Source of the DNA: Chlorobiota bacterium
GTDB taxonomy: Bacteria; Bacteroidota; Ignavibacteria; Kapaibacteriales; UBA961
Length of the DNA: 64,000 bases
Direction: 5' to 3'
Assembly: GCA_039810485.1 (NCBI GenBank)
Contig: JBDHXA010000002.1
Span: 8,597 to 72,596 of the forward strand
Below, in pieces: positions 3,549-58,251 of the stretch (positions are counted from its first letter, which is position 1; the number at the start of each line of letters is the position of its first letter). The translations under genes were made by a program, and so were the position numbers. The notes beneath the pieces are model-generated. The model was not told where the DNA came from and searched no databases. It saw nothing but the letters and a program-made list of their open reading frames with translations.

Positions 3549-3675
3549 ATTTATTGTCAGATACTCATATTCACAATTTTATGATATTTCTGTACATACA
3601 GCGTAAATATTTCAAGATTATTTGTATTTTTGCATCGTTATATCATTTTTTATTTATAATATTTCAAATTACTCT

Positions 3676-5409: not shown

Positions 5410-5637
5410 ATTAAAATACCTGATTTAAAAACATAACACTTTGTTGATAAATATAATTTCTTGAATGTCAGCAATAACGAAATCCACGTATCTAATCCAT
5501 TGCTTACAATTTAATTATATCAGACGTTTATTCATAAGACATGAGCGTCTTTCAATGCGTTAATATTTCAAAGAATTATCAGCAATAAACGATAAGAAAA
5601 TAACACCATAATTTTATTTACTTTGGAAACGAACATT

Positions 5638-6069
5638 ATGATAAAAGAACGGACGCTTGCAATCATTAAACCTGATGCAACACGCAAAAATGTAGTAGGA
5701 GAAATTATTGCAGCCATAACGCAGGACGGCTTTACCGTCCTAGCTATGAAAATGACACGAATCAGCCGCGAACAAGCTTCTGAATTTTATGCTGTTCATC
5801 GCGACCGAGGTTTTTTTGGCGAACTTGTTGATTTTATGAGCAGCGGAGCCATCGTGCCCATAGCGCTCGAAAAAGAGAATGCTGTAGCTGACTATCGCTC
5901 TTTAATCGGCGCTACAGATCCGACAGAAGCTGCCGAAGGAACAATTCGTAAAAGATTTGCTTCCTCAAAAGGTGAGAATGCCGTCCATGGCTCAGATTCA
6001 GTAGAAAATGGGAACAAAGAAATATCATTTTTCTTTGCAGAAAGTGAAATTGTCGGAAACCGCTCGTAA
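5638..6069 (+). CDS. ndk: Nucleoside diphosphate kinase.
   Basis: Start [14 protein letters not shown], active-site region NAVHGSDS, about 143 aa. Classic NDK. ATG at 5638 is preferred over the upstream TTG. Confidence 0.9.
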
Positions 6070-20900: not shown

Positions 20901-22183
20901 ACTATTGCCGCAAGGCGCTGCATCATTATTCTGCTTTGTTTACGGTTAGTTACATCACGAAAAATAATATTTATCAGATTTTGTCCTTCTACTACGGTTT
21001 TGGACAGAGCGCCTTCTATTATTATTTCTCTTCCGTCCGAGCAAACTCCTCGCATTTCTCTAAGAATATCATCTTTAATTTCTTGAGTTTTATATTTATT
21101 CACATATACTTGATGAGTCGCTCGTCTATTTTCCGGCAATAACACGTCAAGTTTTTTCCCATACAAATCAACTTCTTTGTAGCCAAATATTTCTTCTGCC
21201 GATGGATTTACAAGTATAATATTTTGGTCTTCATCTATGCTTATTATGCCACCAATGGATGAATCTATGATGCTTTTTATTCGACGCTCGCTCGTTTGCA
21301 GCTTTTCGACATGGTTGAGAGAGCGAGCATTATAAAAGAGCAGGATGCTGAATACAATCATTATGAGCGATGCTGTTACTAACGGTTCACTATTAATATC
21401 TAATAAGCCAGAATTCATATATACTATTTCCAAACAAAGAGGAAATATTACAGCTACAGGAAGCATCAGTCGTAGTGTTCGACCTGCTGATGTATTTTCT
21501 GTCAGGATTTTCATAAGACCTATTTTAGGTCGGCTAATAAATGCTCCTATGCCTATTAACATTAGTGCAATTGAAGCATTGAAAGGAATGGGTGGAGAAT
21601 TTTTACTAAAAACACTAATTTCCGTTTGTAAAAAATATCCAGAAACAGCAGTTATACCCAAAAAGAATACTGAAAGGAAGAGTATTTGGCTCTTATAAGA
21701 ATGCAATCGGAATATTCCAATGCTCATTAATAGCAGAGATGACGCCGTCAAGGCAGACATGCTGCCAGACAATACTATATTCTTTATAGTGTCGTATTTA
21801 ATATAAATGTCATCAATCCCTAATTCCAAATTGAAAATTATTTCTAACAACGTAATAAAACAATATATTAGAACAGTTATTGAAATTAGGTTTGCAAAGT
21901 AATTAGCATATTTGTTGCTCGGTATAAATATTTTGATAATATATGCTATGCTAATGAGAAAAAATCCAATTGAAGCGTTAAATCGTATTGGATGTGCGCC
22001 TAATCCAAAATTCACAAGAAAAGGAATATCCCAAAGCCAGCCAACAATTCCAAATAGTCCGATAATTAATGAGCATAAAATTAGCGACGCGCACAACCGT
22101 CGCAGAATCGTAAAAGTTCTCTCTGTAACAGTTAGCAAATCTTTCATATTTCTTCTTGAAATGGTTGGTAAATTTACGCACAA
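17936..22183 (-). CDS. Hybrid sensor histidine kinase: polytopic N-terminal membrane sensor, about 6 PAS/PAC domains, HisKA, HATPase_c and a C-terminal receiver.
   Basis: About 8 N-terminal TM helices. Repeated PAS signatures. H-box IAHDLNNILTPI. G-boxes (DQGIGM, GTGMGL). C-terminal REC (VIDDES...ITDMMMPYMDG...K). Confidence 0.85.
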   Translation of the reverse strand: MCVNLPTISRRNMKDLLTVTERTFTILRRLCASLILCSLIIGLFGIVGWLWDIPFLVNFGLGAHPIRFNASIGFFLISIAYIIKIFIPSNKYANYFANLISITVLIYCFITLLEIIFNLELGIDDIYIKYDTIKNIVLSGSMSALTASSLLLMSIGIFRLHSYKSQILFLSVFFLGITAVSGYFLQTEISVFSKNSPPIPFNASIALMLIGIGAFISRPKIGLMKILTENTSAGRTLRLMLPVAVIFPLCLEIVYMNSGLLDINSEPLVTASLIMIVFSILLFYNARSLNHVEKLQTSERRIKSIIDSSIGGIISIDEDQNIILVNPSAEEIFGYKEVDLYGKKLDVLLPENRRATHQVYVNKYKTQEIKDDILREMRGVCSDGREIIIEGALSKTVVEGQNLINIIFRDVTNRKQSRIMMQRLAAIVESSTDGIISTDTEKRILTWNKGAERIYGYTEKEAIGQPTSFIIPADKIEEVQQIGNILLSGKSITNFETERIHRNGARLAVSISASPITDDAKKVTGFSIIVRDKSELLQKEQSLRKSGERYNALFENLLEGYALCRIKYDSDGKPIDFEYIAVNPSFKSLFGIDNIVGKTFNEVIPGVLEQNPEILQRYARVAITGIQERFETYLPQTNGWYSLSLFSPEKEYFVALFSNMTEAKQAEEALRVSEERNRAIVEAIPDLMFELNSDGVFLDFHAPSDTILYDSPSNFLQKNISEILPTNVAEQTKETIRKTLQTRKLEKFEYSLLINNIVMHSEARSIFLADDKVLLLIRDITERITAQQAFVESQRRLDFALEIAGMGVWEWNVETDTVEWSERCYDIFRINKNDHILPIKDAIANTVHPDDVPMVRRALSISLKERTILSVEYRSKYSLQDNPQWMASNGSAEYDETGTPVKMVGTVMNITTRKIAEEALRKTEEQFRLIAENTTDYISVIDTEGKRLYISPSLQKIYGNAIETSSLDTQHPNDREHIVKLLHQVVSTGESQFATSRIVTKDGETRFIDAVANPVFDETKSKVQQIVVVARDVTEQKRIEKQIQRSQRLESIGTLAGGIAHDLNNILTPIMLSLEILSKKFPDEKSAVLLSMLKSSVNRGSDMVKQVLGFARGIEGERFSIQLSHVINEIGRIIKEVFPKNIVYYSKISDDLPAVFADSTQIHQIMMNLCVNARDAMPNGGALTITAESLFLDEQYAKMQFGVDPGYYVVISVADQGIGMSAAVVDRLYEPFFTTKEFGKGTGMGLPTALAIIKGHGGFINVYSEVGKGSTFKVYLPVSQKEMRSEKQATERNYSGNGQLIMVIDDESAILEVTRQTLQLNGYAVLTANDGASALAMYATQKDYIALVITDMMMPYMDGNATIRALQTINPLVKIIAVSGFKQNGNRVDQGDNVWFLGKPYTSDKLLEAIHRAIG

Positions 22184-22603: not shown

Positions 22604-23548
22604 ATGGAAGAAAGTAAATATATTCCCATAAGACCTGCTTTTTTAGGTGTTCACATTTTTGAAGATGTGCCGCTTGACGAATTACGAAATTACATTGATT
22701 GGACGCCGTTTTTTTTGTCATGGGAATTGCGAGGCAAATATCCAGCTATCTTTGATGACGCGCAATGCGGAGATGCAGCACAGAAGCTGTTTGAAGACGC
22801 CAATCAGATTCTCAATAAAATTATAAACGAAAAACTATTGACATCAAAAGCCGTTTGCGGTTTTTTTTCTGCAAATAGCGTCAATCACGATGATATTGAA
22901 ATATATACAGATGATAAAAGAAATGAAGTTCTGATAACTCTTAATATGCTACGTCAACAAATTAAACGAGGGCAAAATCTTCCGAATCTTTGCTTGTCAG
23001 ATTTTATTGCACCAAAAGAAACAGGCATTTCTGACTATATTGGCGCATTTGTGGTTACAGCCGGTATAGGCACAATCGAATTATGCAAAAAATACGAAGA
23101 GTTGCATGATGATTATTCGGCAATACTAGTCAAAGCATTGGCAGATCGTCTTGCAGAAGCAGCCGCAGAGTGGCTGCATGAACAGGTTCGCAGAAAGCTT
23201 TGGGGATTTGCTTCGAATGAAATACTAACAAATGAAGAACGCATAGCCGAGCAATATCAAGGAATTCGACCGGCGCCAGGTTATCCTGCATGTCCAGACC
23301 ACACAGAAAAGAAAAAATTATTCGATTTGCTCGATGCTACAAACCACACAAATGTCATATTAACAGAAGGCTATGCAATGACGCCTGCTGCATCAGTAAG
23401 CGGATGGTACTTTGCTCATCCGAGTTCTCATTATTTTGGAGTTGGCAAAATAACTCGTGAGCAACTAGATGATTACGCACAAAGGAAAAGTTGGACAAAT
23501 GAAGAAGCGGAACACTGGCTTGCAGCAAATTTGGAATACAACAGCTAA
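22604..23548 (+). CDS. Stand-alone methionine synthase reactivation domain (AdoMet-binding, Met_synt_B12). It corresponds to roughly E. coli MetH residues 900-1227 only.
   Basis: Near-collinear match to the MetH C-terminus: RNYIDWTPFF, GKYP, DDIEIY, DYIGAFVVTAG, HDDYSAILVKALADRLAEA, QGIRPAPGYPACPDHTEK, ASVSGWYFAHP. Confidence 0.85.
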   Translation: MEESKYIPIRPAFLGVHIFEDVPLDELRNYIDWTPFFLSWELRGKYPAIFDDAQCGDAAQKLFEDANQILNKIINEKLLTSKAVCGFFSANSVNHDDIEIYTDDKRNEVLITLNMLRQQIKRGQNLPNLCLSDFIAPKETGISDYIGAFVVTAGIGTIELCKKYEELHDDYSAILVKALADRLAEAAAEWLHEQVRRKLWGFASNEILTNEERIAEQYQGIRPAPGYPACPDHTEKKKLFDLLDATNHTNVILTEGYAMTPAASVSGWYFAHPSSHYFGVGKITREQLDDYAQRKSWTNEEAEHWLAANLEYNS

Positions 23549-25365: not shown

Positions 25366-26562
25366 TTATTTATAGACGTAAATATTTCCCAAGATTGGAT
25401 CGCGCGCATGATGGTTGGTTATTTGATTAATAACCTCTTGAGAAAATACTACTCCTGCAGAAAGAAGCTTTAAGCCGGAATTTGCATATAAATCTCGAAA
25501 AAGCGTCATTCCTTGCTGCACATCTTTTAATTCAATTGTTGTTACTTTTGATGATCGCAAAGTGCCATCTTCATTGGCTCGATATTCTTCGTGCAGCAAT
25601 ACAACACGTGGATCGTATAGGTGATTCATGCCATTGAATAATGAATCAGAAGCACCTTTTGCTCCTTTTGGCAAAAATATTGATAACTCTTCATAGTCGA
25701 GAACAACTCGAAGAATGCGAGAGCCAAGAGGCAGTTGCCACGCCTTTTTTCCTTGTGGAAATCCTGATCCGTCAAAATTTTCATACAACGACTCCAACAA
25801 CACTCCTGCTTCTTTAAGCAATCTTGCTTTATTGAGTATTGCTGCCGCAGAGCTTGAAATTTGTTTAAGAGCCGAATGAACAACTTGTCCTTCTTGCATA
25901 ACGGGCTGTAATTGTAAGCTTTCTGGCAAAAGTAAACGTCCTAAATAGCAGAATTTTGAAGCTAAACCGATATTTTGCAAATCACTTTTTCCAAGATCAA
26001 TAAAATGCTTCGCAATCCACAGAGAAATGCTCTCAACGCGTTCAAACATTGTTATCAAAGTTGGAAATCTTGATTGCAATAAATCAGCGGCCAGATTAGC
26101 AATTTCAAGTAATTCTTCATCCTCAGATTCTTTCTGTGTTTTCTGATTTAGTATCTGACGCTGCAATGCCGCGGCACGCAATCCAACTTTCAATCTTGCA
26201 TTTAAATCGTCAATTGTAAAGGGTTTCCCAATAAAATCATCAGCTCCAGCTTTAAATGCCTGAGTGCGAATTTCCGGCGTGGAAGTTGGAGAAGCGGCAA
26301 CAACAATGCAGTAAATTGAAGACGTATGTGAATAGGTTTTTATAGAGCTGCATAGCTCTAAGCCAAATGTCGGCGTAATATTTGTATTTATGAGAACTAA
26401 ATCAATATGAGATTTATCAGCAATTTTCCAAGCATCGTTTCCGGTTTTTGTTTTATAAATGCGAGAATTAGGCGCGATCCGAAGAATGTATTTTTCAAAT
26501 GCATCCAACACTAATTGTTCGCTCTCTACAATCAGTATCTTTAACTCGTCTGTAATTTGCAT
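25366..26562 (-). CDS. Response regulator: N-terminal receiver domain plus a degenerate HD-GYP domain. The metal-ligand HD/HH residues are replaced, so it is probably non-catalytic.
   Basis: REC (ILIVESEQ...DLVLIN...K). The C-terminal domain is collinear with HD-GYP, but the HD position reads FCYLGRLL and HHERWDGSGYP reads LYENFDGSGFP. Start reassigned to the ATG at 26562 (MQITDELKILIVE) because upstream codons overlap motB. Confidence 0.65.
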   Translation of the reverse strand: MQITDELKILIVESEQLVLDAFEKYILRIAPNSRIYKTKTGNDAWKIADKSHIDLVLINTNITPTFGLELCSSIKTYSHTSSIYCIVVAASPTSTPEIRTQAFKAGADDFIGKPFTIDDLNARLKVGLRAAALQRQILNQKTQKESEDEELLEIANLAADLLQSRFPTLITMFERVESISLWIAKHFIDLGKSDLQNIGLASKFCYLGRLLLPESLQLQPVMQEGQVVHSALKQISSSAAAILNKARLLKEAGVLLESLYENFDGSGFPQGKKAWQLPLGSRILRVVLDYEELSIFLPKGAKGASDSLFNGMNHLYDPRVVLLHEEYRANEDGTLRSSKVTTIELKDVQQGMTLFRDLYANSGLKLLSAGVVFSQEVINQITNHHARDPILGNIYVYK

Positions 26563-26578
26563 ACAAATTAAAAAATAA

Positions 26579-27430
26579 TTATAACGGTCGTTGATTTCTA
26601 TATCGGACAAGTATGCTAACGCGACGATTGCTTGTATCGAAAGGATTGGAAGGAACTCGTAACTTGCGATCTGCATAACCGGTAACGCTAACGATTTGTC
26701 CTTCCCAAAGTTTGTCGCTTTGTTCTAAGATTCTGCGCACTGCATTAGCTCGCTCATTCGATAATTCCCAATTAGAATAATTCCGTCCCTTTCCATATGG
26801 TCTGCTGTCAGTATGACCTTCCACTTCTATAAAATTAGGCATTGTGCCTAATTCGAAAGCAAGTTTTTGTATTAAGTCAACTGCATCTTTTGTAGGGCGC
26901 GAGCTTCCCACCTGAAAAAACTCTGTTGAATCAGATTCCAGCATTTCAATACGCAATCCCTCTTCTGTCAATTCAATTTTTAAAGATGAAAGAAGTTTTT
27001 TGATTCCGGGCTTTTCCTCAACTTGCTCTTTTAATATCTCATCAATTTTACTTCGCAATTCCTCCATGTTAGTGCTGTCTTTTGCAAATTCTATTTTTAT
27101 TTTCGCCGAATCAGATACGCTCACTTCTATATCGGATTTTGCTCCCGGATTATTTCCTTCGCCGCGCGGAGGCAAAGGGGTAAATTTCATGTCTATCGGG
27201 ACTCCTTTGCCAGTTGTAAAGCTAAAGACACCCGGTTCTTTAAAGAATTGCGCTATTCCCTTTTTTGTAGCATCGCTCAGACCAAGTATCCACATAACCA
27301 AAAAAAACGCCATCATGGCAGTTACGAAATCAGCATAAGCTACTTTCCATGCTCCTCCATGATGTCCTCCATGACCATGCTTTTTCTTTTTCTTTATAAT
27401 AATCGGCTGTTCTGGATTATGTTCCGACAT
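26579..27430 (-). CDS. motB: Flagellar motor stator protein MotB (OmpA-like peptidoglycan-binding C-terminus). No motA is adjacent.
   Basis: N-terminus KKKKHGHGGHHGGAWKVAYADFVTAMMAFFLVMWIL (MotB plug and TM region with conserved Asp). C-terminal OmpA-like NERANAVRRIL. Confidence 0.75.
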   Translation of the reverse strand: MSEHNPEQPIIIKKKKKHGHGGHHGGAWKVAYADFVTAMMAFFLVMWILGLSDATKKGIAQFFKEPGVFSFTTGKGVPIDMKFTPLPPRGEGNNPGAKSDIEVSVSDSAKIKIEFAKDSTNMEELRSKIDEILKEQVEEKPGIKKLLSSLKIELTEEGLRIEMLESDSTEFFQVGSSRPTKDAVDLIQKLAFELGTMPNFIEVEGHTDSRPYGKGRNYSNWELSNERANAVRRILEQSDKLWEGQIVSVTGYADRKLRVPSNPFDTSNRRVSILVRYRNQRPL

Positions 27431-33890: not shown

Positions 33891-35609
33891 TTAACGATTC
33901 GTATCAGGAACACGCCAAAAGAAAACAAATCCAGCCTTTTCACCTATTTCGTGAATATTCTTGTGTTGCCTGCATATATGAGCATCTTGCATTTTACAAA
34001 CGAAATAAGCGGGCTTGTCAATGTCGCCATCAAACAACCAGTTCTCGAAATCATCAGGCAAAATATCGAGCGATGAAGGCGCAAGACAGCGAGGCTTTTT
34101 AGTATAAAACAAATGTGCGTAGCTCTTGAATCCTACGGGTTTAACATAGCAGTCCTTATCTTGTAAAGATTGATAGAATTCAACAGCCGATGCTTGTGTA
34201 TATCCTTCAATTTTAGGAGCAATAATCGGTAAAAATAACCAAGATGAGATTACTGTCGAAGCAAAAAGCACAATTATTTTTGAACGGTTTGGCAGAAACA
34301 AAGAAACTATAATTGCAAATCCAAACGTTATCCCTATAGTAGTTTCCCATTTTCCCCATTGTACTGGAGCCGTTAAATTTGCTCTTGCAAATTCATCGTT
34401 GATAAATGGAAGCAAATTGTCTTTAAATAGACCAATAACCGGAATTGCTGAAAAAGCCAAAGCCCATAAAATGCCAAATATGCCTACTATTGCTGAATGT
34501 ATTTTTTTCCACTTTATCGTACCTGATAATATTTCATCTAACCAATTGGCAGCTAAAAATGCAATAGGAAAATAACAAAGAGATGAATAATGCACTATTT
34601 TTGTTTTTACGATTGAAAATATTGCTAAGACGACAATTAGCAGAACTATATTCCATAGGCGAACTATTTTAAAAGAATAATTCTTTTCAGCTGTAAAAAA
34701 TGACCATAATGCAAAAACCGAAGCAGGAAAGCAGCCGAACAATAATACAATAAAATGATAATAAAACGGGCCGCTGTGTCCAGCATCGCCTGTAGTAAGT
34801 AGTCGTATTTGATACCGAATAAATTCTGATACGAACCATGTTCCATTACGCAAAATATCAATCCCAAACCATAACCCTGCGGTTAATAAAGAACAAATAA
34901 GAAAAACAGCCCAAAATGGAAGCGAAGAAATTAGATATTTTCCATAAATCTGAAAAAATTTTCGTTGCAATGCCGAATGTTGTATTGTATTTTCAGTTAC
35001 AGAAGAATAAGCATTCTGTTTAAAAAATACAATACTCATCACAATTAGCATTGCAGTGCTTGAAACCAACAAAGCAACTGGTCCCTTTGTCAGCATTGCT
35101 AAACCAATAAGAATGCCTGCTAATGCTGAATTTCGAAGTTTTTTATCCTCTTTTCCTATGGCTAATGTCATTATCCCTGAAAAGATAAGAAGATTAAATA
35201 AAGGATCTATAATAGCCGAACGAAAATATAAATACGGCAAAAATGATCCACAATAGGAAGCTACCCATAGATATCCAAATCTTCTTGAACGAATGTGCTT
35301 TCCCCAAAGAAATAGTAGAGGCAGCGTAATAATGCCAATTAAAGCATTTGGCAAACGCGCCGCAAATTCATTCACTCCAAATATAGACATCAAACTGGCT
35401 TGCAGCCATATAAATAATGGCGGTTTTTCCCAAAAAGGTGAATAATCAATCTGAACACGCAAATAATCGCCCGTTGTCAGCATTTCTCGAGCGCATTCAG
35501 CAAAATTTATTTCATCCCAATCAAACAGCCGTACATTACCCAAAAATGGTATAAATAATATGGCTGCAACAGCCATAATCAATAGCACATCTTTTTTTAC
35601 GCTCATCAA
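33891..35609 (-). CDS. GT-C fold glycosyltransferase, family 39 / ArnT-like (dolichyl-phosphate-mannose-protein mannosyltransferase-like), with C-terminal soluble domain.
   Basis: About 11-12 TM helices. An N-terminal DE motif in the first loop (FDWDEINFAE) is typical of PMT/ArnT GT-C enzymes. 572 aa. Confidence 0.65.
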   Translation of the reverse strand: MMSVKKDVLLIMAVAAILFIPFLGNVRLFDWDEINFAECAREMLTTGDYLRVQIDYSPFWEKPPLFIWLQASLMSIFGVNEFAARLPNALIGIITLPLLFLWGKHIRSRRFGYLWVASYCGSFLPYLYFRSAIIDPLFNLLIFSGIMTLAIGKEDKKLRNSALAGILIGLAMLTKGPVALLVSSTAMLIVMSIVFFKQNAYSSVTENTIQHSALQRKFFQIYGKYLISSLPFWAVFLICSLLTAGLWFGIDILRNGTWFVSEFIRYQIRLLTTGDAGHSGPFYYHFIVLLFGCFPASVFALWSFFTAEKNYSFKIVRLWNIVLLIVVLAIFSIVKTKIVHYSSLCYFPIAFLAANWLDEILSGTIKWKKIHSAIVGIFGILWALAFSAIPVIGLFKDNLLPFINDEFARANLTAPVQWGKWETTIGITFGFAIIVSLFLPNRSKIIVLFASTVISSWLFLPIIAPKIEGYTQASAVEFYQSLQDKDCYVKPVGFKSYAHLFYTKKPRCLAPSSLDILPDDFENWLFDGDIDKPAYFVCKMQDAHICRQHKNIHEIGEKAGFVFFWRVPDTNR

Positions 35610-39598: not shown

Positions 39599-40006
39599 TT
39601 ATTCTTTCGTTTCAACAAATACTTTGTCATTTTCAATACCCATATATGGGCCTTGTTTTACACTGATGCATTGCATATCCTCAGTAACACGTATTGCATG
39701 AACACCATGAATCAACACAATTCCATCGCCTTTTCTTAATGTTATTTCTTCGAGCATTTCACCATTGTCTGCATAAAGCTCGACTATCACCTCTCCTCGC
39801 TGAACTACAAACATCTGCTGTAAATCCGTTATTTCTCTTCTAAATGGCTTATGGTAATGAGGCGGCTCAACAAAACCTGCTTTATGCGCTAATATACCAA
39901 ACTGGAAAGAAGATTCAGCCGGCGAATAAAATGTAGTTTGATCTACACGAACATCTGAGCGAAGCACTTCTGCATATCGAACTCCGTTATAAACTATACT
40001 TTGCAT
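39599..40006 (-). CDS. WxcM-like cupin (FdtA-type sugar 3,4-ketoisomerase-like).
   Basis: 135 aa single-domain cupin: FQFGILAHKAGFVEPPHYHK...VVQRGEVIVELY matches the WxcM C-terminal / FdtA fold pattern. Confidence 0.6.
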   Translation of the reverse strand: MQSIVYNGVRYAEVLRSDVRVDQTTFYSPAESSFQFGILAHKAGFVEPPHYHKPFRREITDLQQMFVVQRGEVIVELYADNGEMLEEITLRKGDGIVLIHGVHAIRVTEDMQCISVKQGPYMGIENDKVFVETKE

Positions 40007-42975
40007 TATTGTATTTCCGTAAATTGCAAATGACTGACAACTGAAAATTGCGATTCATGTGTGCCATGTCTAAAACGCGGCTTGGCTGGATAATATGCCT
40101 CTTCAGGAGGCAATTCCCTCAATACTCCTTCGGCAACATCGCTTCTTACAAAAAAAGCATTATAACCATTGGAATCGCAGCCAACAAGTATAAAACCTTT
40201 TTTGCACATCAATTTCGTTAATGCAGTAAGCGATGCTCCGTGATACCAGCCGCTTTTATGATAATCCATGCAATAAAACTTTGGATCGTATGGAATAGTA
40301 ATAGAGCGTTCCGGACCAAATGAAGGATTGTATTCTAAAATAACAATGCGTGGTTTTATTACATTTAATCGTTCCATAATCCAATAATCATTGCCGTCAA
40401 TATCAAGCGAGAATACGTCAAGCTCTCCTGTGGCTCTCATCTGAATAAACAATTCATTGATATTGTCAATTGTTACAAAGGATTGCTCTACTCGCACTTG
40501 TGGCAAATGCGCATAGAATTTTCGAGCAGCATCCACTTGCTGGCTATTAGCGTCTATCAACAGACCTTTCCATCCATGATTTAAAGATAAATTTGCTGTG
40601 TTGCATTCATCGCCGCTGCCTATGCCTATTTTAATAAAGCGTTTATGTACTACGCCTACACGTGAAAGCAACCCCAAGAGAATACCGTCCTCTCCACTTT
40701 TAGAATAAATTTTAAATTCAAAATTGCGAAGCATGTCAACTTGATATTTTATCTCATCTGTATTTATTAAAGCGCTTTCAATAAATGGTTTTATGGATCT
40801 CGATGCCATTGAGGTAGCATAGAGCGCCATTGGATTGTGAGGCATAATTTTCAGTTCGCCTTGCAAAGCGACAAATGCCTCGTCAATGCGTCCTAATCGC
40901 CATAGACAAAGAGAACGAAGATATTGCACATTCGGCAGTTGAGAATGGGTAATCATTGCTTCATCGAGATAGTACAAAGCTTCAGTAAAATTATTATTCT
41001 GCATTGCATTTTGAGCTTTTTCAACAAATCCATAAGCTCGTTTTTGCAATATTTCTTCAGGCATCATATCATTGGGATATGGCGCAGTGGCATTTTGATT
41101 ATCCATTGCAGCGTGATTCGTTTTTATGTATTCTTCTTTTATTTCTTTTATGGATTTATCTTTATTTGATAAAATTATATCGTCATGAGAATTACGATAA
41201 AATATAAAAGTTTTTTCAACATAATCAGATTGCATATTCTCTGCAATTGTCAATGCGTTTTTTAGAATAAATCCATGGTTAATAAATTCATTAACAAATT
41301 CTTTCTCATTAAATAGTAATTCCATTATTTCGATTGAATAAGCTTTCTTTTTAATGTATTGTGTTTGTCTATTTAAGCAAAGCGGAGTTCTATGAGCCAA
41401 AACCCATGTTTTGGCAACACGACATGTTTCGGCAATTTGTGAAGAATATTCTGTTGAATATTGCAAAACTCCCGCAGAAAATACCGCATCGAATTGCTCG
41501 TTTGCGAAAGGAAGCGAAGCGCCATCGGCCACAATAAATTCACATTTTGGATAGTAGTTTTCCGCCATTTTAATAAAATCAGGAGAAATATCTGCTCCTA
41601 TATAATTTATATTTTTACCGGTAGAATATTCCAATACTTCAGAATAATAACCGCTCGAACAGCCAATTTCCAATACATTTATTCCATTGAAAGCAATTTC
41701 TTGGAATGCTTCGGCTGCAATTTTATATGGCAATGGCATATTGCCTTTATACATCTGAGCAAGTTCCTGCTGCACCAAAGCTCTTTGTTTTCGCGGAATT
41801 TCCTTGTCAAGCCAGCCATGCCGCAATGAAGCAGTAATATCTGATTTTTTAATTAGGGTATGATCTGTTGAAATATTATAGGTGGAAATGCCTTTGAAAT
41901 ATTCAGTTTCGCGTTTATAGCGCAGATGGCGCTCAAATCGCTCGGCAGTTTGTTTCATTCTTTCTGAATAGGTATGTTCAGAAAGTGTTCTACGCTGTCC
42001 GGCAGCAGCAATTGCGGCAGTTTCGGTGGGATGTGCTTCGTAATATCGAATCATTTCCACACATTCTAACGGAGATGAATATTCAATTATTTCTTTGCCC
42101 GATTCAAACAATTCGCCTTGATTTTCCTTAGCATCCGTTATAAGTAAAGCGCCACATCCTGTGGCTTCAAACAAACGCATATTATTTGCATAATTAGCTG
42201 AAACAGCAACCACATGCCGATTTATAGTAATATTTGAGCGATTAAGAAGTTCAAACATTTCCAAGCCCCAAGATTCTCCATTGTGCTTCGGTAGTATCGG
42301 CGAATTTTTTGCAAGGTTCTCAACGCCATAGCCCCAGAATTTAATATCTGTTTCAACTGCCAAATATTCTAGCAAAGGCGTGTATTTGCTGTGAACAGGA
42401 GAAATTCCGCCGATAAAGCTGCAGTCAATATCACGATATTGTTTATCTGTAAGTTCACAGAGTATTCGTTTTTCAAAGGCAAGCGGTTGATAATATGCCG
42501 TTATTCCTAATTTTCTGAAGTGTTTTACGTAGTGGGGCAGCGAAGATATAATAATGTCAAAACCTTGAAAATGTACATTTTCAGGAATTACTGTTGCTAT
42601 TTGACCGGCTATAATATTTACGTGCGGACGAATTGTGTCTAAAAAATCTTTCGACGCAATTGATAAATCATGGAAGTATATTACATCGGGTTTGTAGTGT
42701 GCAATTTGATCAAGAGCAAGATGCAACCCATGTGTAGTTTTCGAATTCTCTTTTGCCCAGGCAGATTGGAGCGGTACTGCATTCAAAATCAGATCATCTG
42801 TTTTCCAGCCATTTTGCCCTAGATTGTAGGAATAAAAATCGCTGTCTCCAAAACGAGCATTTCGCAGCACATTTAACTGTTCGTTGTATGAAGCACTTGC
42901 TAATAATGGATTTGCAGCATACGCCGATTGTAAAAACGCTGGATAATAAAGATTAAGAAATAAACAAGAATGCAT
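40006..42975 (-). CDS. Multidomain glycan-modifying enzyme: N-terminal GT-B-like glycosyltransferase, class I SAM-methyltransferase, TPR repeats and C-terminal FkbM-family methyltransferase-like domain.
   Basis: Residues about 1-350 have a GT1 C-lobe pattern (EATGCGALLITD...GELFESGKEIIEY). About 420-560 carry methyltransferase motif I VLEIGCSSGYYS and the D/E acidic loop. About 640-720 are TPR-like. About 760-989 are FkbM-like (IGIGSGDE...LDIDGNDYW...ILEYNP). Confidence 0.65.
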   Translation of the reverse strand: MHSCLFLNLYYPAFLQSAYAANPLLASASYNEQLNVLRNARFGDSDFYSYNLGQNGWKTDDLILNAVPLQSAWAKENSKTTHGLHLALDQIAHYKPDVIYFHDLSIASKDFLDTIRPHVNIIAGQIATVIPENVHFQGFDIIISSLPHYVKHFRKLGITAYYQPLAFEKRILCELTDKQYRDIDCSFIGGISPVHSKYTPLLEYLAVETDIKFWGYGVENLAKNSPILPKHNGESWGLEMFELLNRSNITINRHVVAVSANYANNMRLFEATGCGALLITDAKENQGELFESGKEIIEYSSPLECVEMIRYYEAHPTETAAIAAAGQRRTLSEHTYSERMKQTAERFERHLRYKRETEYFKGISTYNISTDHTLIKKSDITASLRHGWLDKEIPRKQRALVQQELAQMYKGNMPLPYKIAAEAFQEIAFNGINVLEIGCSSGYYSEVLEYSTGKNINYIGADISPDFIKMAENYYPKCEFIVADGASLPFANEQFDAVFSAGVLQYSTEYSSQIAETCRVAKTWVLAHRTPLCLNRQTQYIKKKAYSIEIMELLFNEKEFVNEFINHGFILKNALTIAENMQSDYVEKTFIFYRNSHDDIILSNKDKSIKEIKEEYIKTNHAAMDNQNATAPYPNDMMPEEILQKRAYGFVEKAQNAMQNNNFTEALYYLDEAMITHSQLPNVQYLRSLCLWRLGRIDEAFVALQGELKIMPHNPMALYATSMASRSIKPFIESALINTDEIKYQVDMLRNFEFKIYSKSGEDGILLGLLSRVGVVHKRFIKIGIGSGDECNTANLSLNHGWKGLLIDANSQQVDAARKFYAHLPQVRVEQSFVTIDNINELFIQMRATGELDVFSLDIDGNDYWIMERLNVIKPRIVILEYNPSFGPERSITIPYDPKFYCMDYHKSGWYHGASLTALTKLMCKKGFILVGCDSNGYNAFFVRSDVAEGVLRELPPEEAYYPAKPRFRHGTHESQFSVVSHLQFTEIQ

Positions 42976-52167: not shown

Positions 52168-52836
52168 TCAAAGGAACGACACATTCAGCTCCGTATAATC
52201 ATGCAACAATAACCGCGCATTGTCACCGGATGTTACGCTGCCGACTCCTGAAGGAGTGCCGGTAAAGATGCAGTCGCCTGCACGAAGCTCGAAAATTGAC
52301 GACAAATATGCGATAATTTGCGCTGTGGATCTTTCCATTTTTTTGGAGTCGCCATATTGACGCTTCTCGTCATTTAGAAATAAAGAGAATGTCAAATGCG
52401 GTTCTTTATCTCCATATTTTTCTATAGGTACAATACTAGAAATTGGCGCCGAATGTCTGAATCCTTTGGACACTGCCCATGGCTCGCCGCATTGCTTGGC
52501 GCGTTGCTGTGCGTCGCGCGCAGTCAGATCGAGGCCAACGCCATAACCAGCAACAACTTGAAAAGCATTTTCAGTAGCAATATCTTTGCAGTCACTGCCA
52601 ATGAGCACAACAAGTTCTGCCTCAAAATGCACTTCCGATGAAAATTTTGGAAGTTCTACGACGGCGCCGTTAGGCGAATAAGCCGATGGCGGCTTAATGA
52701 AAATAATTGGCTCGCTTGGCACAACCGCGCCCATTTCACTTGCGTGGTCGGCATAATTGCGCCCAGCGCAATACATTGTGCCGACCTGCATTGTTCGACC
52801 ATCGGTAAATACATAATTTCTATAATCGAGATTCAT
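52168..52836 (-). CDS. Fumarylacetoacetate-hydrolase (FAH) family protein, short single-domain type (oxaloacetate decarboxylase / acylpyruvase-like).
   Basis: FAH-domain pattern …GRNYADHASEMG…EAELVVLIG…GYGVGLDLTARD…. Confidence 0.75.
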   Translation of the reverse strand: MNLDYRNYVFTDGRTMQVGTMYCAGRNYADHASEMGAVVPSEPIIFIKPPSAYSPNGAVVELPKFSSEVHFEAELVVLIGSDCKDIATENAFQVVAGYGVGLDLTARDAQQRAKQCGEPWAVSKGFRHSAPISSIVPIEKYGDKEPHLTFSLFLNDEKRQYGDSKKMERSTAQIIAYLSSIFELRAGDCIFTGTPSGVGSVTSGDNARLLLHDYTELNVSFL

Positions 52837-54618: not shown

Positions 54619-55341
54619 TCAAAATTTAGGGAACCAATACACTGTAAATCGCGGAATAGAATACATGCGCGACAATAATCCTGACGAACCTGAGCAAAAA
54701 GTGGGATTATTGCTTATTTGTTCGCTACCAAAAGGAATTATAACACGCCATTCGGCAGTTGGAACAATCATTCCTGCGCCCGTTTCCAAATGTACTTCAA
54801 ATCCAACGCCTACATCCAAGCCAAATTTTTGGACAGAAGAAGGAGCATCGGAATCAATTACTCTTTGACCGAGCTTTTCCCACTGCATCGAAGCGCCGGC
54901 GAGCGCAAACAAGCCAATGCGTTTGTTTGAGTTTGCTACAAATCGCGCGCCTATGGAAGCAAAATTATAATGATCGCCCTCCGGACGATATTTCGTTACT
55001 TTTATATTGTTGTTGTGCGAATATATGTAGCTGGCATCAATTGTTAAAAAATCGAACAATCCGTAGTTTAATGAGCCGCCAAATGATAAAATACCATCAT
55101 AGCTTACTGATATTCTTCTGCTATCTGTACATTCTTGAAAATCAATAATCGTATTAGTTGCAACTGTGGCTCCAATACCTAACGATTTTTTGTATGGATT
55201 TGGCGGCTGCACTTCTTCATTATCATACTCTTCATCACGAGGATTACCAGAATTCTGCGCACATATCGGCGCGGCTGCTAACAATAGAAATGCTATAAGA
55301 ATAGGAATACGAAAAAGTTTTTTTGCAGTGGATGTTGTCAT
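54619..55341 (-). other. Outer-membrane beta-barrel (OmpW/porin-family-like) domain or gene embedded in the TatD reading frame.
   Basis: Candidate start MTTSTAKKLFRIPILIAFLLLAAAPICAQ at 55341. Alternating amphipathic beta-strands and a C-terminal aromatic residue (…YWFPKF). Confidence 0.45.
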
Positions 55342-56061
55342 TGAATAGATATTTTCGAGAGTTGTTGAATGTATCTCGGCAATTTTTTCAGCTATAAGCC
55401 GAACATGCGAAGGCTCGTTGCGCTTGCCGCGATATGGAACCGGAGACATATAAGGCGCATCTGTTTCTAACATTAACTTATTCAGCGGCGCTGCAGCAAC
55501 CGTATCGCCAAGGATTGATTTCTTATAGGTTATATTGCCGGTAAAAGAAACGTGCATTCTTAGACGAATTATTTCATTGAGCATTGCCGGATAGCCAGAA
55601 AAGCAATGCATGACGCCGGATAAGGAGCCATCCTGCTCCTCGGTTAGAATTTTCAGCATGTCATCGTCAGAATCTCGGTTATGCACTATAACAGGTTTAC
55701 CGACCCGTTTTGCAATTCGCAATTGCCTGCGAAACACTTCTTGCTGAGTTTCTCGCGGAGCAAAATTATAATAATAATCCAGTCCAATTTCACCGATTGC
55801 AACAACTTTCGAATCGGCGGTTTCATTTTCTATTCTCTCAAAATCAACGTACTTCGCTTCGTGTGCATGATGTGGATGAATGCCTATGCCGCGATAGATT
55901 TGAGTATGCTTTTCGGTTAATCGCTTCACAGCGTCAAAATTTCCGGGATCAATCGAAGGAATGATAATGGCTTCCACGCCGGAGTTAAAAGCTCGAGCAA
56001 TAACTTCGTCGCGGTCATTGTCAAATTGTTCGTTATCGAGATGCGAATGAGTGTCTATCAT
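54619..56061 (-). CDS. tatD: TatD-family metal-dependent hydrolase (about 253 aa) running without a stop codon into a downstream outer-membrane beta-barrel (OmpW/porin-like) ORF that retains its own signal peptide. Apparent in-frame fusion, possibly a lost stop or an indel at an A7T5 homopolymer.
   Basis: TatD motifs (MIDTHSHLD…, EIGLDYY, HCFSG, ETDAPYM, C-terminal KKLFRIP). This is immediately followed by ILIAFLLLAAAPICAQ and a roughly 200-aa beta-rich domain ending YWFPKF. The Met of MTTSTAKKLF at 55341 would give a perfect signal peptide. Confidence 0.55.
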   Translation of the reverse strand: MIDTHSHLDNEQFDNDRDEVIARAFNSGVEAIIIPSIDPGNFDAVKRLTEKHTQIYRGIGIHPHHAHEAKYVDFERIENETADSKVVAIGEIGLDYYYNFAPRETQQEVFRRQLRIAKRVGKPVIVHNRDSDDDMLKILTEEQDGSLSGVMHCFSGYPAMLNEIIRLRMHVSFTGNITYKKSILGDTVAAAPLNKLMLETDAPYMSPVPYRGKRNEPSHVRLIAEKIAEIHSTTLENIYSMTTSTAKKLFRIPILIAFLLLAAAPICAQNSGNPRDEEYDNEEVQPPNPYKKSLGIGATVATNTIIDFQECTDSRRISVSYDGILSFGGSLNYGLFDFLTIDASYIYSHNNNIKVTKYRPEGDHYNFASIGARFVANSNKRIGLFALAGASMQWEKLGQRVIDSDAPSSVQKFGLDVGVGFEVHLETGAGMIVPTAEWRVIIPFGSEQISNNPTFCSGSSGLLSRMYSIPRFTVYWFPKF

Positions 56062-56092
56062 ATTGAAAACATTAATGCTTGGCAAGCATTTT

Positions 56093-56551
56093 TTAGTTGT
56101 CGTTAATATGCCGAATGGAGATAATGCGATTATTGTCGTTTTCAGCATCGAAAACGATGCTTATTTCCCATTGAGATTGAGGCATTAGTTCACCGGCATT
56201 TTCCGGCCATTCCACAATTTTTATAGCATTTTCGGTGTACATGCATTCTTGGAAGCCGATTTCTGCCAATTCGCCTGCCGAACTGATTCGGTACAAATCA
56301 ACGTGGTAAATTGTTATTTCTTCGTCGTCGGCATCGTTTCCGAAATACTGATTTATAATGGTAAACGTTGGGCTTGACACAATGCCTTCAACGCCAAAAT
56401 AATCGCAAATACCTTTGGTAAATTCGGTTTTTCCGGCTCCTAATTCACCGGAAAGAGACACAATATCGCCCGGATGCAAACTCTCGGCAAATGTTTTACC
56501 GATATGATTCGTATCATCTTCGCTTATAGAATGGTAGCTGTTAATTTCCAT
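56093..56551 (-). CDS. tsaE: tRNA threonylcarbamoyladenosine biosynthesis ATPase TsaE (YjeE).
   Basis: P-loop LSGELGAGKTEFTKGI and a conserved HVDLYR-like segment. Start placed at the ATG at 56551 (MEINSYH...), giving 153 aa. Confidence 0.75.
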   Translation of the reverse strand: MEINSYHSISEDDTNHIGKTFAESLHPGDIVSLSGELGAGKTEFTKGICDYFGVEGIVSSPTFTIINQYFGNDADDEEITIYHVDLYRISSAGELAEIGFQECMYTENAIKIVEWPENAGELMPQSQWEISIVFDAENDNNRIISIRHINDN

Positions 56552-56636
56552 GAGCGCTGCCAAATGTGAAACATAGTAAAGTAAATTTTTATGTTCTGCA
56601 TGAGAGGAAAACTCCCCTTTTTTCGACAAAATCGAA

Positions 56637-56660
56637 GGCGAGGCATTTGTTCTCCTCGCC
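56637..56660 (-). terminator. Candidate intrinsic terminator hairpin downstream of the PorX-like gene.
   Basis: Stem ggcgagg / cctcgcc. The minus-strand 3' flank ttcgattttgtcg is U-rich. Confidence 0.35.
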
Positions 56661-56691
56661 TATTCTCGATAATTCTCTTGAAATCTTCGCC

Positions 56692-58251
56692 CTATTTTGG
56701 CTCCAATGTAATCACGGGAAGCATCATTTCCTCTAGCGAGATGCCGCCATGCTGAAAACTGTCGCGATAGCGCTGCACATAATGATGATAATCTGTAGGA
56801 TACACAAAGTAATAATCCTCTTTTGCAATTATGTAATTATCAGAAACTCCCGATCCGGGCAGTTTATACTCTTCAGGATTGCGTATGTACAAAGCTGTTT
56901 TACTGTCGGCTTTTACATTTTTGCCATGCTTAAAGCGCAAACAAGTTGAAGTTTCGCGATCGCCTAATGCTTTTACAGCTCTCATGCAGCGAACCGATCC
57001 ATGATCTGTGGTTATTACAATTTTTACTTTTGGAATGCCCGATAGAGTTTTCAACATTCCGAAAAAGCTAGAATGTTGAAACCATGAACGAGTAAGCGAG
57101 CGATAAGCTGCTTCATCGGGCGCAATCTCTTTGAGTATCGGATAATCAGAACGCGAATGAGCTATCATATCTACTGCATTTACCACAATGGCAGTCAGAT
57201 GTTGCTTGGCATATCGTAAAATATCATTTTCAATTCTCTTGCCAAAATCTGTGTCTATGATTTTAATATAAGCGAGTTCGTTTTTTAACGATATTCTTCG
57301 GCGCTTAAGCAAAGCGTTGAGCAATTCTTTTTCATTTGCATTTTGGCTATGCTCCGAAGCGCTCATATCTGGCGCTAATTGCGGATAGTGCTTTTTAAGA
57401 TCCGAAGGAAATAAACCGGAAAATATTGCGTTTCTTGCATAAGGCGTCGAAGTTGGCAAAATACCGCTGTAATATTCTTTTTGTACGCTAAAATACGGAC
57501 GAATTAGATCTTCTATTATCAGCCATTGATCCAAGCGCATGCAGTCAATCACAAAGAAAAATACTGGATCACCAGATTGGAGATGCGGAATTATATGTTT
57601 GTCCACAATATTTGGAGATAGCGCCGGACCTTCGCCCGCGATCCATCGGCGATAATTATGCTCTACGTATTTGCCAAACTCAGCATTGCACTCGCGCCAT
57701 TGGTCGCTAAGAGTTTGGAGAAATCCGAGCTCCGGATGACGGTCTAAATCAATGCTCCAATTTACAAGTTTCATATAAATGTCGAGCCAATCATCCCAAT
57801 CCATAAAATCAAAAAGGCGCCTGCTTATTTCGGCAAAGCCCTGAGTGTAGTCCTGCGTCAATTTTTTTTCGGTAATACGGCGCGATTCCAAAAACTTTTT
57901 ACAAGCTGCTAATATTTGCGCAGGATTTACAGGCTTCGTCAAATAGTCGTCAATTTTCCGCCCGATCGCCTCCTCCATCAAACTCTCAGCCTCATTCTTC
58001 GTTACCATTACCACTGGCGCCGAAGGGTCGACTTCTTTGAGTTGCGCTAATGTTTCCAATCCGCTCATGCCAACCATTGATTCGTCAAGAAAAAACAAGT
58101 CATAGCGTTCGCGCTTTGCCATTTCAACAGCATCGCTGCCATTGGCTGCTGTGCTGACAATGTAGCCGCGCTGTTTCAGAAGAATAATATGCGGTTTCAG
58201 CAATTCAATTTCATCATCAATCCAAAGGATATTGCCTTTGTTTTGTTCCAT
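56692..58251 (-). CDS. porX: PorX-like response regulator: N-terminal CheY-like receiver fused to a PglZ (alkaline-phosphatase-superfamily) effector domain. Putative T9SS regulator.
   Basis: REC (ILWIDDEIELL…LFFLDESMVGMSG…K). The C-terminal domain has the PglZ-like hallmark …ITTDHGS… and is about 519 aa. The architecture and length match PorX of Porphyromonas/Flavobacterium, and T9SS cargo genes are abundant in this window. Confidence 0.6.
   Translation of the reverse strand: MEQNKGNILWIDDEIELLKPHIILLKQRGYIVSTAANGSDAVEMAKRERYDLFFLDESMVGMSGLETLAQLKEVDPSAPVVMVTKNEAESLMEEAIGRKIDDYLTKPVNPAQILAACKKFLESRRITEKKLTQDYTQGFAEISRRLFDFMDWDDWLDIYMKLVNWSIDLDRHPELGFLQTLSDQWRECNAEFGKYVEHNYRRWIAGEGPALSPNIVDKHIIPHLQSGDPVFFFVIDCMRLDQWLIIEDLIRPYFSVQKEYYSGILPTSTPYARNAIFSGLFPSDLKKHYPQLAPDMSASEHSQNANEKELLNALLKRRRISLKNELAYIKIIDTDFGKRIENDILRYAKQHLTAIVVNAVDMIAHSRSDYPILKEIAPDEAAYRSLTRSWFQHSSFFGMLKTLSGIPKVKIVITTDHGSVRCMRAVKALGDRETSTCLRFKHGKNVKADSKTALYIRNPEEYKLPGSGVSDNYIIAKEDYYFVYPTDYHHYVQRYRDSFQHGGISLEEMMLPVITLEPK

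Follow-up and report, generated by a model that had tools for sequence, protein, structure and literature searches.

A PorX-type response regulator gene, its tsaE neighbour and four predicted type IX secretion cargo genes in a Kapabacteria-like contig

We identified a gene (porX) whose product is, with a probability of roughly 0.88, an orthologue of PorX, i.e. a predicted two-zinc phosphodiesterase that would be switched by phosphorylation and would control the secretion system of type IX (T9SS) in the manner set out below by homology. The gene is an ordinary, clear-cut copy of an already well-studied T9SS switch protein: the assignment is correct and it is not novel, since PorX has already been studied in two species and the host lineage lies inside Bacteroidota, where to our knowledge PorX is reported in all classes. 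Four genes encoding putative T9SS cargo proteins were found in the same window (the whole stretch of 64 000 nucleotides that was analysed), and the gene directly downstream of porX, on the same strand, encodes a protein of the TsaE/UbK family (Table 1). We are confident in naming the ORF porX, and its four neighbour genes can be annotated as encoding T9SS substrates.

The product of porX scores 684.8 bits (cutoff 300) against the NCBIfam equivalog model NF052313 (T9SS_RR_PorX), with residues 7–519 aligned to positions 2–513 of the 513 in the model. A Pfam scan of the protein found a receiver domain (Response_reg, residues 8–117, 87.8 bits) and a PglZ domain (residues 230–425, 64.2 bits, cutoff 25) only, and no HTH or other DNA-binding domain. 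The first-pass annotation, made from the letters alone, had described a 519-aa receiver–PglZ regulator of PorX architecture acting through a non-DNA-binding, phosphodiesterase-like PglZ domain, and had proposed the PglZ model as a check; the family and domain scores bear out this description, and the lack of a DNA-binding Pfam domain agrees with the suggested mode of action. The length of the protein is inside the range of 500–530 aa that we took from the literature (PMC9757075) as the length criterion for PorX. It shares 43% identity over 507 aligned residues (E = 5e-144) with Porphyromonas gingivalis PorX (7PV7), and 42% identity with Flavobacterium johnsoniae PorX (8TED/8P6F) over residues 4–519.

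Table 1. Features discussed in the text (positions in the window; CTD, C-terminal sorting domain; Pg, P. gingivalis)
Feature	Position	Strand	Basis or remarks
Cargo 1: CRTAC1/ASPIC-like FG-GAP protein, Ig-like domains	9734..12727	+	Pfam FG-GAP_3, UnbV_ASPIC
Cargo 1 type-A CTD, residues 917-985	12482..12688	+	Por_Secre_tail (PF18962) 28.0 bits, Pfam cutoff 27
MotB-like gene	26579..27430	-	MotB_plug 67 bits, OmpA 44 bits
Sigma-54 activator	44612..45958	-	Profile scans
Cargo 2: Porphyromonas-type arginine/agmatine deiminase-family (PPAD-like) protein	46646..48814	-	PAD_porph 126.1 bits
Cargo 2 CTD, residues 645-711	46682..46882	-	TIGR04183 29.7 bits, cutoff 23; Por_Secre_tail 32.1 bits
Cargo 3: S8 subtilase, likely start 52142	49278..52184	-	Peptidase_S8 158.1 bits
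Cargo 3 CTD, residues 886-958	49311..49529	-	TIGR04183 33.0 bits, cutoff 23
tsaE / ubK (YjeE/YdiB family P-loop ATPase/kinase)	56093..56629	-	Pfam TsaE 127.2 bits
GC-rich hairpin, then UUUUG	56631..56670	-	22 nt past porX stop
porX	56692..58251	-	519 aa; ATG start; GGAG 5 nt upstream
PglZ / alkaline-phosphatase-superfamily effector domain, ~residues 206-519	56695..57636	-	Pfam PglZ residues 230-425
Predicted catalytic Thr269 codon	57445..57447	-	Aligned to Pg T272
Linker / three-helix bundle, ~residues 122-205	57637..57888	-	Boundaries inferred from homology only
Receiver (CheY-like) domain, residues 8-117	57901..58230	-	Pfam Response_reg 87.8 bits
Phospho-acceptor Asp56 codon	58084..58086	-	Aligned to Pg D58
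Cargo 4: 1039-aa Gly-rich AgmC_N-like / Ig_7 / SprB-repeat protein	60763..63882	+	Pfam Ig_7
Cargo 4 CTD, residues 962-1032	63646..63858	+	TIGR04183 27.2 bits, cutoff 23; Por_Secre_tail 29.9 bits

The residues expected for function are all in place. In the alignment, the receiver active site (D12, D13, D56, T84, Y103 and K106) corresponds to D14, D15, D58, T86, Y105 and K108 of P. gingivalis PorX; the predicted zinc ligands (D236, D361, H365, D416, H417 and H501) correspond to D239, D361, H365, D415, H416 and H500, and the predicted phosphate contacts (R273 and N358) to R276 and N358. Compared with the residue lists of a published study (PMC9757075), identity is complete for the receiver active site (6/6), the metal-binding and catalytic residues (7/7), the fold core (11/11) and the nucleotide contacts (2/2). 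Across 82 PorX sequences (42–89% identity), the metal/catalytic and nucleotide-contact residues are all invariant, and so are five out of the six receiver active-site residues (D, D, D, T and K), the sixth being Tyr or Phe. The helical-bundle region, a domain of PorX described previously (PMC10951265), aligns near-continuously with the solved PorX proteins, with a single 2-residue deletion.

By homology to two PorX proteins that have been crystallised and mutated, from which the enzymatic activity, the partners and the control of the T9SS are all carried over, the following mechanism can be proposed. A histidine kinase of the PorY type, encoded elsewhere, would phosphorylate Asp56 of the receiver, and PorX would dimerise by way of its PglZ domains and the alpha4-beta5-alpha5 face; at the two-zinc PglZ site, where Thr269 would serve as nucleophile, phosphodiesterase activity towards small (oligo)nucleotides (e.g. 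pGpG) would be switched on. Its output would consist of protein contacts (with a SigP-type ECF sigma factor and with the cytoplasmic tail of the motor protein PorL/GldL) together with nucleotide turnover, and proteins tagged with a CTD, like those of the four cargo genes in the window, would be exported by the T9SS. PorX is known to bind PorL (PMC5005315), and its effect on the genes for T9SS components is exerted through SigP in P. gingivalis (PMC4800418, PMC5005315); F. johnsoniae PorX has phosphodiesterase activity and binds GldL (PMC10951265). Loss of porX in F. johnsoniae has modest effects on secretion, affecting some enzymes, and leaves gliding unaffected (PMC11320123), and the label of a T9SS 'master switch' may fail outside P. 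gingivalis. The gene had also been put forward as useful for testing how PorX works, which overstates its value: crystal structures, mutagenesis and phosphodiesterase assays are already published for PorX of two species (PMC9757075, PMC10951265, PMC11320123).

All four cargo proteins carry a type-A CTD that scores above a curated cutoff, and each CTD is at the extreme C-terminus, ending 4–14 residues before the stop codon. TIGR04183 is passed by the PPAD-like, S8 and AgmC-like proteins, and the CTD of the CRTAC1-like protein is above cutoff in Pfam PF18962 (Por_Secre_tail) only. Judged by eye, 4/4 have Sec signal-peptide-like hydrophobic N-termini with an A-x-A or Q-like cleavage context. The AgmC-like protein scores 213.6 bits against NF047640, under the cutoff of 275. 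We looked for a fifth cargo gene among all window ORFs of at least 80 aa, using the four CTDs to build an HMM, which recovered those four only. These are the four genes that the first-pass annotation had named as T9SS cargo; its positions for them are right, and the CTD models it had suggested as a check support its reading.

From porX and the four cargo genes only, we strongly infer that this organism should have a functional T9SS. None of the T9SS core genes (porK/L/M/N, sov/sprA, porU/V/P/Q/T) was found in the 64-kb window, where every ORF of 150 aa or more was searched with Pfam and NCBIfam and unannotated ORFs were scanned at E ≤ 5; the window likewise has no gene for a SigP-like ECF sigma factor or for PorL/GldL, and porX has no gene for a PorY-like kinase beside it (the window's sole histidine kinase, of 1415 aa, is a hybrid PAS kinase encoded ∼34 kb from porX). 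The link between porX and a working T9SS is therefore indirect here. A TatD protein encoded in the window is fused to a C-terminal OM beta-barrel of 225 aa; considered as a PorT-like component, this barrel was rejected, having only weak generic OMP_b-brl matches (E = 8e-4) and no match to a PorT model. The GyrB of the window is 91% identical to that of a Bacteroidetes MAG and 78–80% identical to those of Ca. Kapaibacterium MAGs, and Kapaibacteriota are now placed inside Bacteroidota by NCBI; PorX and a T9SS are thus expected in this Kapabacteria lineage. Our literature search on T9SS in Kapabacteria found nothing specific. The result has little importance beyond annotation; it indicates that the secretion equipment usual in Bacteroidota is also present in an uncultivated lineage resembling Kapabacteria.

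Of the flagellar-type MotB and sigma-54 machinery claimed for the lineage in the first-pass annotation, a sigma-54 activator and a MotB-like gene are present; the MotB-like product is below threshold for the flagellar MotB model (NF006548, 228.1 bits, cutoff 277), and no MotA ORF lies beside its gene, which has PlsC upstream and a REC-HD regulator downstream. Scans of the window for tRNAs and Rfam families found nothing.

The gene next to porX has a likely true start at the ATG at 56551, giving 152 aa, and its product matches YdiB (5NP9) and TsaE (6N9A, 9ZW5) and has Walker A (GELGAGKT), SPT, HVDLYR and EW motifs. The gap between the two genes is 62–140 bp depending on the start. We observed the order porX–tsaE in 60 out of 70 metagenomic PorX loci (typical spacing −69 to +60 bp), plus two loci with 400–550 bp in between (∼86–89% of loci, with PorX at 42–77% identity), and the same order is found in loci L001 and L059–L062; the pair is conserved across the phylum. 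Between the two genes here lies a hairpin, found by eye, that folds as RNA at −29.9 kcal/mol (z = −2.44 versus shuffles) and might act as a weak terminator or attenuator; a scan for sigma-70 promoters and terminators around the porX locus gave nothing above the shuffled expectation. The porX–ubK1 pairing of P. gingivalis was described in a survey of 81 strains, all of that species (Saran et al., J Biol Chem 2026, PMC13241743), and in P. gingivalis UbK1 phosphorylates PorX Y79 in vitro (PMC13241743). The equivalent of Tyr79 is Ser77 in the PorX of the window, and the position is variable among 82 PorX sequences (22 have Ser, 14 Asp, nine Asn and two Tyr). What is new relative to the report of 2026, which concerned P. 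gingivalis only, is that the adjacency holds across very divergent PorX loci, whereas the mapped phosphosite does not, and this brings into sharper focus whether TsaE/UbK acts on PorX at all and, if it does, in what way. We tentatively suggest, while considering it unlikely, that porX–tsaE is an ancient module of the sampled PorX family, in which TsaE/UbK would modify or gate PorX at a lineage-variable receiver site (Ser77 / Tyr79). If so, PorX would have a second input, other than a histidine kinase, conserved far beyond P. gingivalis, and T9SS regulation would be coupled either with the t6A/TsaE machinery, which is universal, or with the cellular nucleotide status.

A broader reading of the same gene pair makes PorX a general nucleotide- or zinc-sensing hub coupled to TsaE/UbK, with porX–tsaE as the module and T9SS control as just one lineage-specific output. 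The adjacency in 60 to 62 out of 70 diverse loci and the retention of all UbK motifs in the TsaE of the window are consistent with it, but since TsaE is a protein of t6A synthesis that occurs universally, its place next to porX may reflect an operon that was inherited and means nothing for signalling; moreover, the two genes are set apart here by the terminator-like hairpin. Phosphorylation of PorX by UbK1 in vitro, reported by authors who propose PorX roles beyond the T9SS (PMC13241743), points the same way as the weak porX phenotype of F. johnsoniae and the reported zinc-induced dimerisation (PMC11320123); however, Y79, the sole mapped UbK1 site, is not conserved (Tyr in 2/82), and changing it to Ala (Y79A) gave no secretion phenotype (PMC13241743). 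PorX is moreover reported to be strictly conserved in, and to co-occur with, T9SS users (PMC9757075, PMC11320123), which speaks against T9SS control being a side branch. We regard this broader role as doubtful.

Far less probable still is that porX and the nearby CTD genes (S8, PPAD-like and AgmC-like) form a co-regulated 'secretion island' in which PorX is sited to control them. The porX, tsaE, tatD, ctpA, FAA-hydrolase, S8-CTD, hc1 and PPAD-like-CTD genes do share the minus strand and are closely spaced, and four CTD genes lie within 64 kb, but CTD proteins are numerous in such genomes anyway, and the proximity of cargo genes to porX is not conserved in relatives: in the closest ones (L060–L062, PorX 89% identical) ctpA is followed by hrcA/surA on the other strand and by no cargo gene, and in L059 the flanking CTD genes encode different proteins and are on the opposite strand. 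PorX has no DNA-binding domain, and that of P. gingivalis works via SigP on T9SS component genes (PMC4800418, PMC5005315), which also speaks against such an island. Model scores and gene context already refute one more reading. BREX has PglZ as its signature domain, and the protein does have a weak match to NF033449 (BREX_PglZ_3), so that it might be taken for a phage-defence protein instead of PorX; at 87.1 bits, however, this match is far under the cutoff of 250 and far under the score of the PorX model, and no brxA/B/C, pglX or brxL-like genes are found in the neighbourhood. With its N-terminal receiver and 519 aa, the protein also differs from BREX PglZ proteins, which have no receiver and at least 600 aa (PMC9757075). 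We give this reading next to no credence, and assignment to PorX stands as the preferred one.

Among known systems, BREX PglZ proteins (e.g. that of BREX-3) have the same PglZ / alkaline-phosphatase-superfamily fold as the porX product and the same metal-binding residues (PMC9757075), but they are encoded in BREX operons and serve phage defence. Much closer is P. gingivalis PorX (PGN_1019; 7PV7, 7PVA and 7PVK), which has the same three-part architecture and nearly the same length (518 aa); the phospho-acceptor Asp, the receiver site, the two-zinc ligands, the catalytic Thr and the nucleotide-phosphate contacts are identical. tsaE/ubK1 is directly downstream of porX in P. gingivalis as well (PMC13241743), and the UbK1–PorX pairing of that species is matched here in gene order, strand and the Walker A, SPT, HxDxYR and EW motifs, but not in the mapped phosphosite. 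In both cases porX is also encoded apart from a cognate kinase: porY is unlinked to porX in P. gingivalis (PMC5005315), and no PorY-like kinase adjoins porX here. The two proteins differ at Tyr79 (Ser77 here) and at I129 of the RD interface (T127 here), and their hosts differ too, P. gingivalis being an oral pathogen and the host here an uncultivated environmental Kapabacteria-like organism. F. johnsoniae, an environmental, non-pathogenic member of Bacteroidota with many CTD cargo proteins, encodes a PorX (8P6F, 8TED, 8TEF, 8TFF, 8TFM and 8THP) with Ala at position 79 (Ser here), and with active sites and domain order as in the protein described here.

The 519-aa receiver–PglZ open reading frame that the first-pass annotation had described as being of PorX type is present with exactly the same boundaries, and it matches the curated PorX equivalog model of NCBIfam (NF052313) with 684.8 bits (cutoff 300) and end to end (residues 7–519 against model positions 2–513 of 513). 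By Pfam, residues 8–117 form a receiver domain (87.8 bits) and residues 230–425 a PglZ domain (64.2 bits, above the gathering score of 25), bearing out the proposed architecture. A BREX assignment was rejected: the runner-up NCBIfam model, BREX-3 PglZ, scores 87 bits, under its cutoff of 250. The full length of the protein aligns with the solved PorX proteins of P. gingivalis (7PV7/7PVA/7PVK; E = 5e-144, 43% identity across 507 aligned residues) and F. johnsoniae (8P6F, 8TED series; E = 4e-135, 42% identity). The residues of defined function listed by Schmitz et al. 2022 (PMC9757075) have these counterparts in the window protein (P. gingivalis residue first): D14/D12, D15/D13, D58/D56, T86/T84, Y105/Y103 and K108/K106 in the receiver active site; D239/D236, T272/T269, D361/D361, H365/H365, D415/D416, H416/H417 and H500/H501 as zinc ligands and nucleophile; and R276/R273 and N358/N358 as phosphate contacts. 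The listed fold-core residues are also identical (11 out of 11). Sequence analysis could not place the protein in the PorX family more securely, because all mapped functional positions are invariant among 82 PorX sequences (77 from metagenomic loci, two from relatives with NCBI assemblies, the two solved ones and that of the window), except that the receiver switch tyrosine is either Tyr or Phe.

The architecture and residues can be read directly from the protein; its activity, partners and regulon in the host we infer by homology with the PorX proteins studied so far (partners and mechanism: PMC9757075, PMC5005315, PMC10951265, PMC11320123). An unlinked PorY-type kinase would phosphorylate Asp56, and PorX would dimerise via its PglZ domains and the alpha4-beta5-alpha5 face of the receiver; the Zn2 site, in which Thr269 is the nucleophile, would then become an active phosphodiesterase for small oligonucleotides (e.g. 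pGpG), and output would pass through protein partners, namely the C-terminus of PorL/GldL and an ECF sigma factor of SigP type.

Features of the window, with coordinates
Feature	Position	Strand	Remarks
porX	56692..58251	-	519 aa; ATG start; GGAG five bases 5' of start
GC-rich hairpin, then UUUUG	56631..56670	-	22 nt after porX stop codon, between porX and tsaE
tsaE/ubK	56093..56629	-	
TatD fusion	54619..56148	-	TatD DNase domain at residues 31-280
S8 protease	49278..52142	-	CTD by TIGR04183, 33.0 bits
hc1	~49038..49259	-	small gene, chlamydial histone H1-like; 9758..9979 of retrieved contig L001
PPAD-like protein	46646..48814	-	CTD by TIGR04183, 29.7 bits
CRTAC1-like protein	9734..12727	+	CTD by Pfam model only, 28.0 bits (cutoff 27)
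1039-aa repeat protein	60763..63882	+	CTD by TIGR04183, 27.2 bits; Gly-rich residues 34-408
Sigma-54 activator	44612..45958	-	
MotB-like gene	26579..27430	-	
MotB-like and REC + HD_5 ORFs	25366..27430	-	overlapping
Hybrid histidine kinase	17936..22183	-	1415 aa; at least four PAS domains, C-terminal receiver
Succinyl-CoA-ligase-alpha-like gene	3622..5409	+	595 aa
Met_synt_B12 ORF	22604..23548	+	314 aa, 419 bits
Multidomain protein gene	40006..42975	-	989 aa
PMT_2 glycosyltransferase	33891..35609		

Four large cargo genes with type IX secretion system (T9SS) C-terminal sorting domains (CTDs) had been proposed, and all four proteins do carry a type-A sorting domain at the extreme C-terminus, three of them by TIGR04183 (cutoff 23 bits) and the CRTAC1-like protein by Pfam alone. 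All four N-termini also resemble signal peptides, and the usual CTD motifs are present (PxP, D..GR, GxY). An HMM built from the four CTDs and run on every window ORF of 80 aa or more found no fifth, so the count in the window is four. The Gly-rich region of the 1039-aa protein matches the N-terminal model of the Myxococcus adventurous-gliding protein AgmC (NF047640; 213.6 bits, under the cutoff of 275); since Ig_7 and SprB-repeat matches follow this region, the protein may be a surface adhesin.

The minus-strand genes run in the order hexapeptide-repeat protein, porX, tsaE, tatD, S41 Ctp protease, FAA hydrolase, S8 cargo, hc1 and PPAD-like cargo, with hc1 lying between the two cargo genes. Relatives whose PorX is 89% identical keep porX-tsaE-tatD-ctpA, followed by hrcA/surA on the opposite strand, and a 4.2-Mb relative (67% identity) shares porX-tsaE alone with the window. 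We therefore rejected a PorX-controlled cargo island, as the proximity of porX to cargo genes is not conserved in relatives. The tatD ORF of the window is fused to a small OM beta-barrel: in the same reading frame, the DNase domain is followed by a segment resembling a signal peptide, RIPILIAFLLLAAAPICAQ, and then by a ~200-aa domain weakly similar to OM beta-barrels, for which neither NCBIfam nor Pfam supports a PorT-like identity. The fusion is not an assembly artefact, because it is kept as a single ORF of 488–489 aa in two relatives (retrieved loci L060, 12135..13598, and L063, 2633..4099); it is an odd pairing of a cytoplasmic nuclease with a barrel that is apparently exported.

PorX and the four CTD proteins together strongly suggest a functional T9SS in the host. 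The window GyrB is 91% identical to that of a 'Bacteroidetes bacterium' MAG and 78–80% identical to those of several Candidatus Kapaibacterium/'Ignavibacteria' MAGs, and the closest PorX homologues are annotated as Kapabacteria or Ignavibacteria (Candidatus Kapaibacteriota falls within phylum Bacteroidota in the NCBI taxonomy); an identical PorX was found only on a 10-kb Logan contig spanning the same region. PorX is reported in all Bacteroidota classes and strictly conserved among T9SS users (PMC9757075; PMC11320123), and T9SS has been described for the entire FCB superphylum, so PorX and CTD cargo are expected in a Kapabacteria-type lineage. Scans of the window ORFs (Pfam on all of at least 150 aa, NCBIfam on most, with unannotated ORFs rescanned at permissive thresholds) turned up neither a T9SS core component nor a SigP-like sigma factor, nor a PorY-like kinase adjoining porX. 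The sole histidine kinase in the window is the hybrid PAS kinase, ~34 kb from porX; in P. gingivalis, likewise, porX has no adjacent kinase. In several distant metagenomic loci (L113, L116, L118, L120, L122 and L138; PorX 43–46% identity) a histidine kinase ORF ends just 5' of porX on the same strand, and these are candidate linked PorY genes.

The first-pass annotation also mentioned sigma-54 machinery, of which an activator is indeed found, and a flagellar-type MotB, which stands in part: the gene encodes MotB_plug and OmpA domains, but scores 228 bits against the flagellar MotB model (cutoff 277) and has no motA beside it. A PlsC acyltransferase gene lies upstream, and the overlapping downstream REC + HD_5 regulator is HD-GYP-like, resembling NosR-family c-di-GMP phosphodiesterases. 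Elsewhere, the succinyl-CoA-ligase-alpha-like protein is extended by an AT-hook-like basic tail, the AT skew of the bin 4001–6000 is unusually high (0.26), and a stand-alone ORF encodes only the B12 activation domain of methionine synthase. In the 989-aa protein a glycosyltransferase-like domain is joined to a class I SAM methyltransferase, TPR repeats and an FkbM methyltransferase. The gene for this protein adjoins those for a phosphomannomutase and the PMT_2 glycosyltransferase, which suggests a cluster for the modification of surface glycans.

The conserved part of the neighbourhood is porX followed by tsaE. We fetched 80 metagenomic PorX loci (42–77% identity), 70 of which extend at least 450 bp downstream of porX: a same-strand TsaE homologue starts -69 to +330 bp from the porX end in 60, two more have one within ~550 bp, and eight have none. 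The window TsaE has the motifs GELGAGKT (Walker A), SPT, HVDLYR and EW; its matches are YdiB of B. subtilis, TsaE of T. maritima and the 9ZW5 chain (141 aa). In P. gingivalis, ubK1, encoding a TsaE/YdiB-family 'ubiquitous bacterial kinase', is downstream of porX in all 81 strains studied (PMC13241743, 2026); the loci fetched here extend the adjacency beyond this single species to PorX genes across the family. The main alternative would make PorX a wider signalling hub, coupled to TsaE/UbK and controlling T9SS as only one of its outputs; it draws on this pairing and on the in vitro phosphorylation of P. gingivalis PorX at Tyr79 by UbK1 (PMC13241743). Against it, the Y79A mutant has no secretion phenotype (PMC13241743), and Tyr79 corresponds to Ser77 in the window protein; counts for this site among the 82 sequences include Ser 22, Asp 14, Asn nine, Thr eight, Ala seven and Tyr only two, confirming the non-conservation remarked on by the same authors. 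The hairpin between the two genes (-29.9 kcal/mol by RNA folding, z = -2.4 against shuffles) may be a partial terminator inside an otherwise conserved pair, so their co-transcription in the window is not certain. We consider the hub unlikely, and favour PorX as the T9SS response regulator.

The window PorX is a textbook orthologue in an expected lineage. Its family, with over 8000 clusters in the databases, is already served by a curated equivalog HMM, by crystal structures for two species and by detailed enzymology. The one aspect that looks ahead, if mildly, is that porX-tsaE/ubK synteny is family-wide and yet the phosphosite known from P. gingivalis is not conserved.
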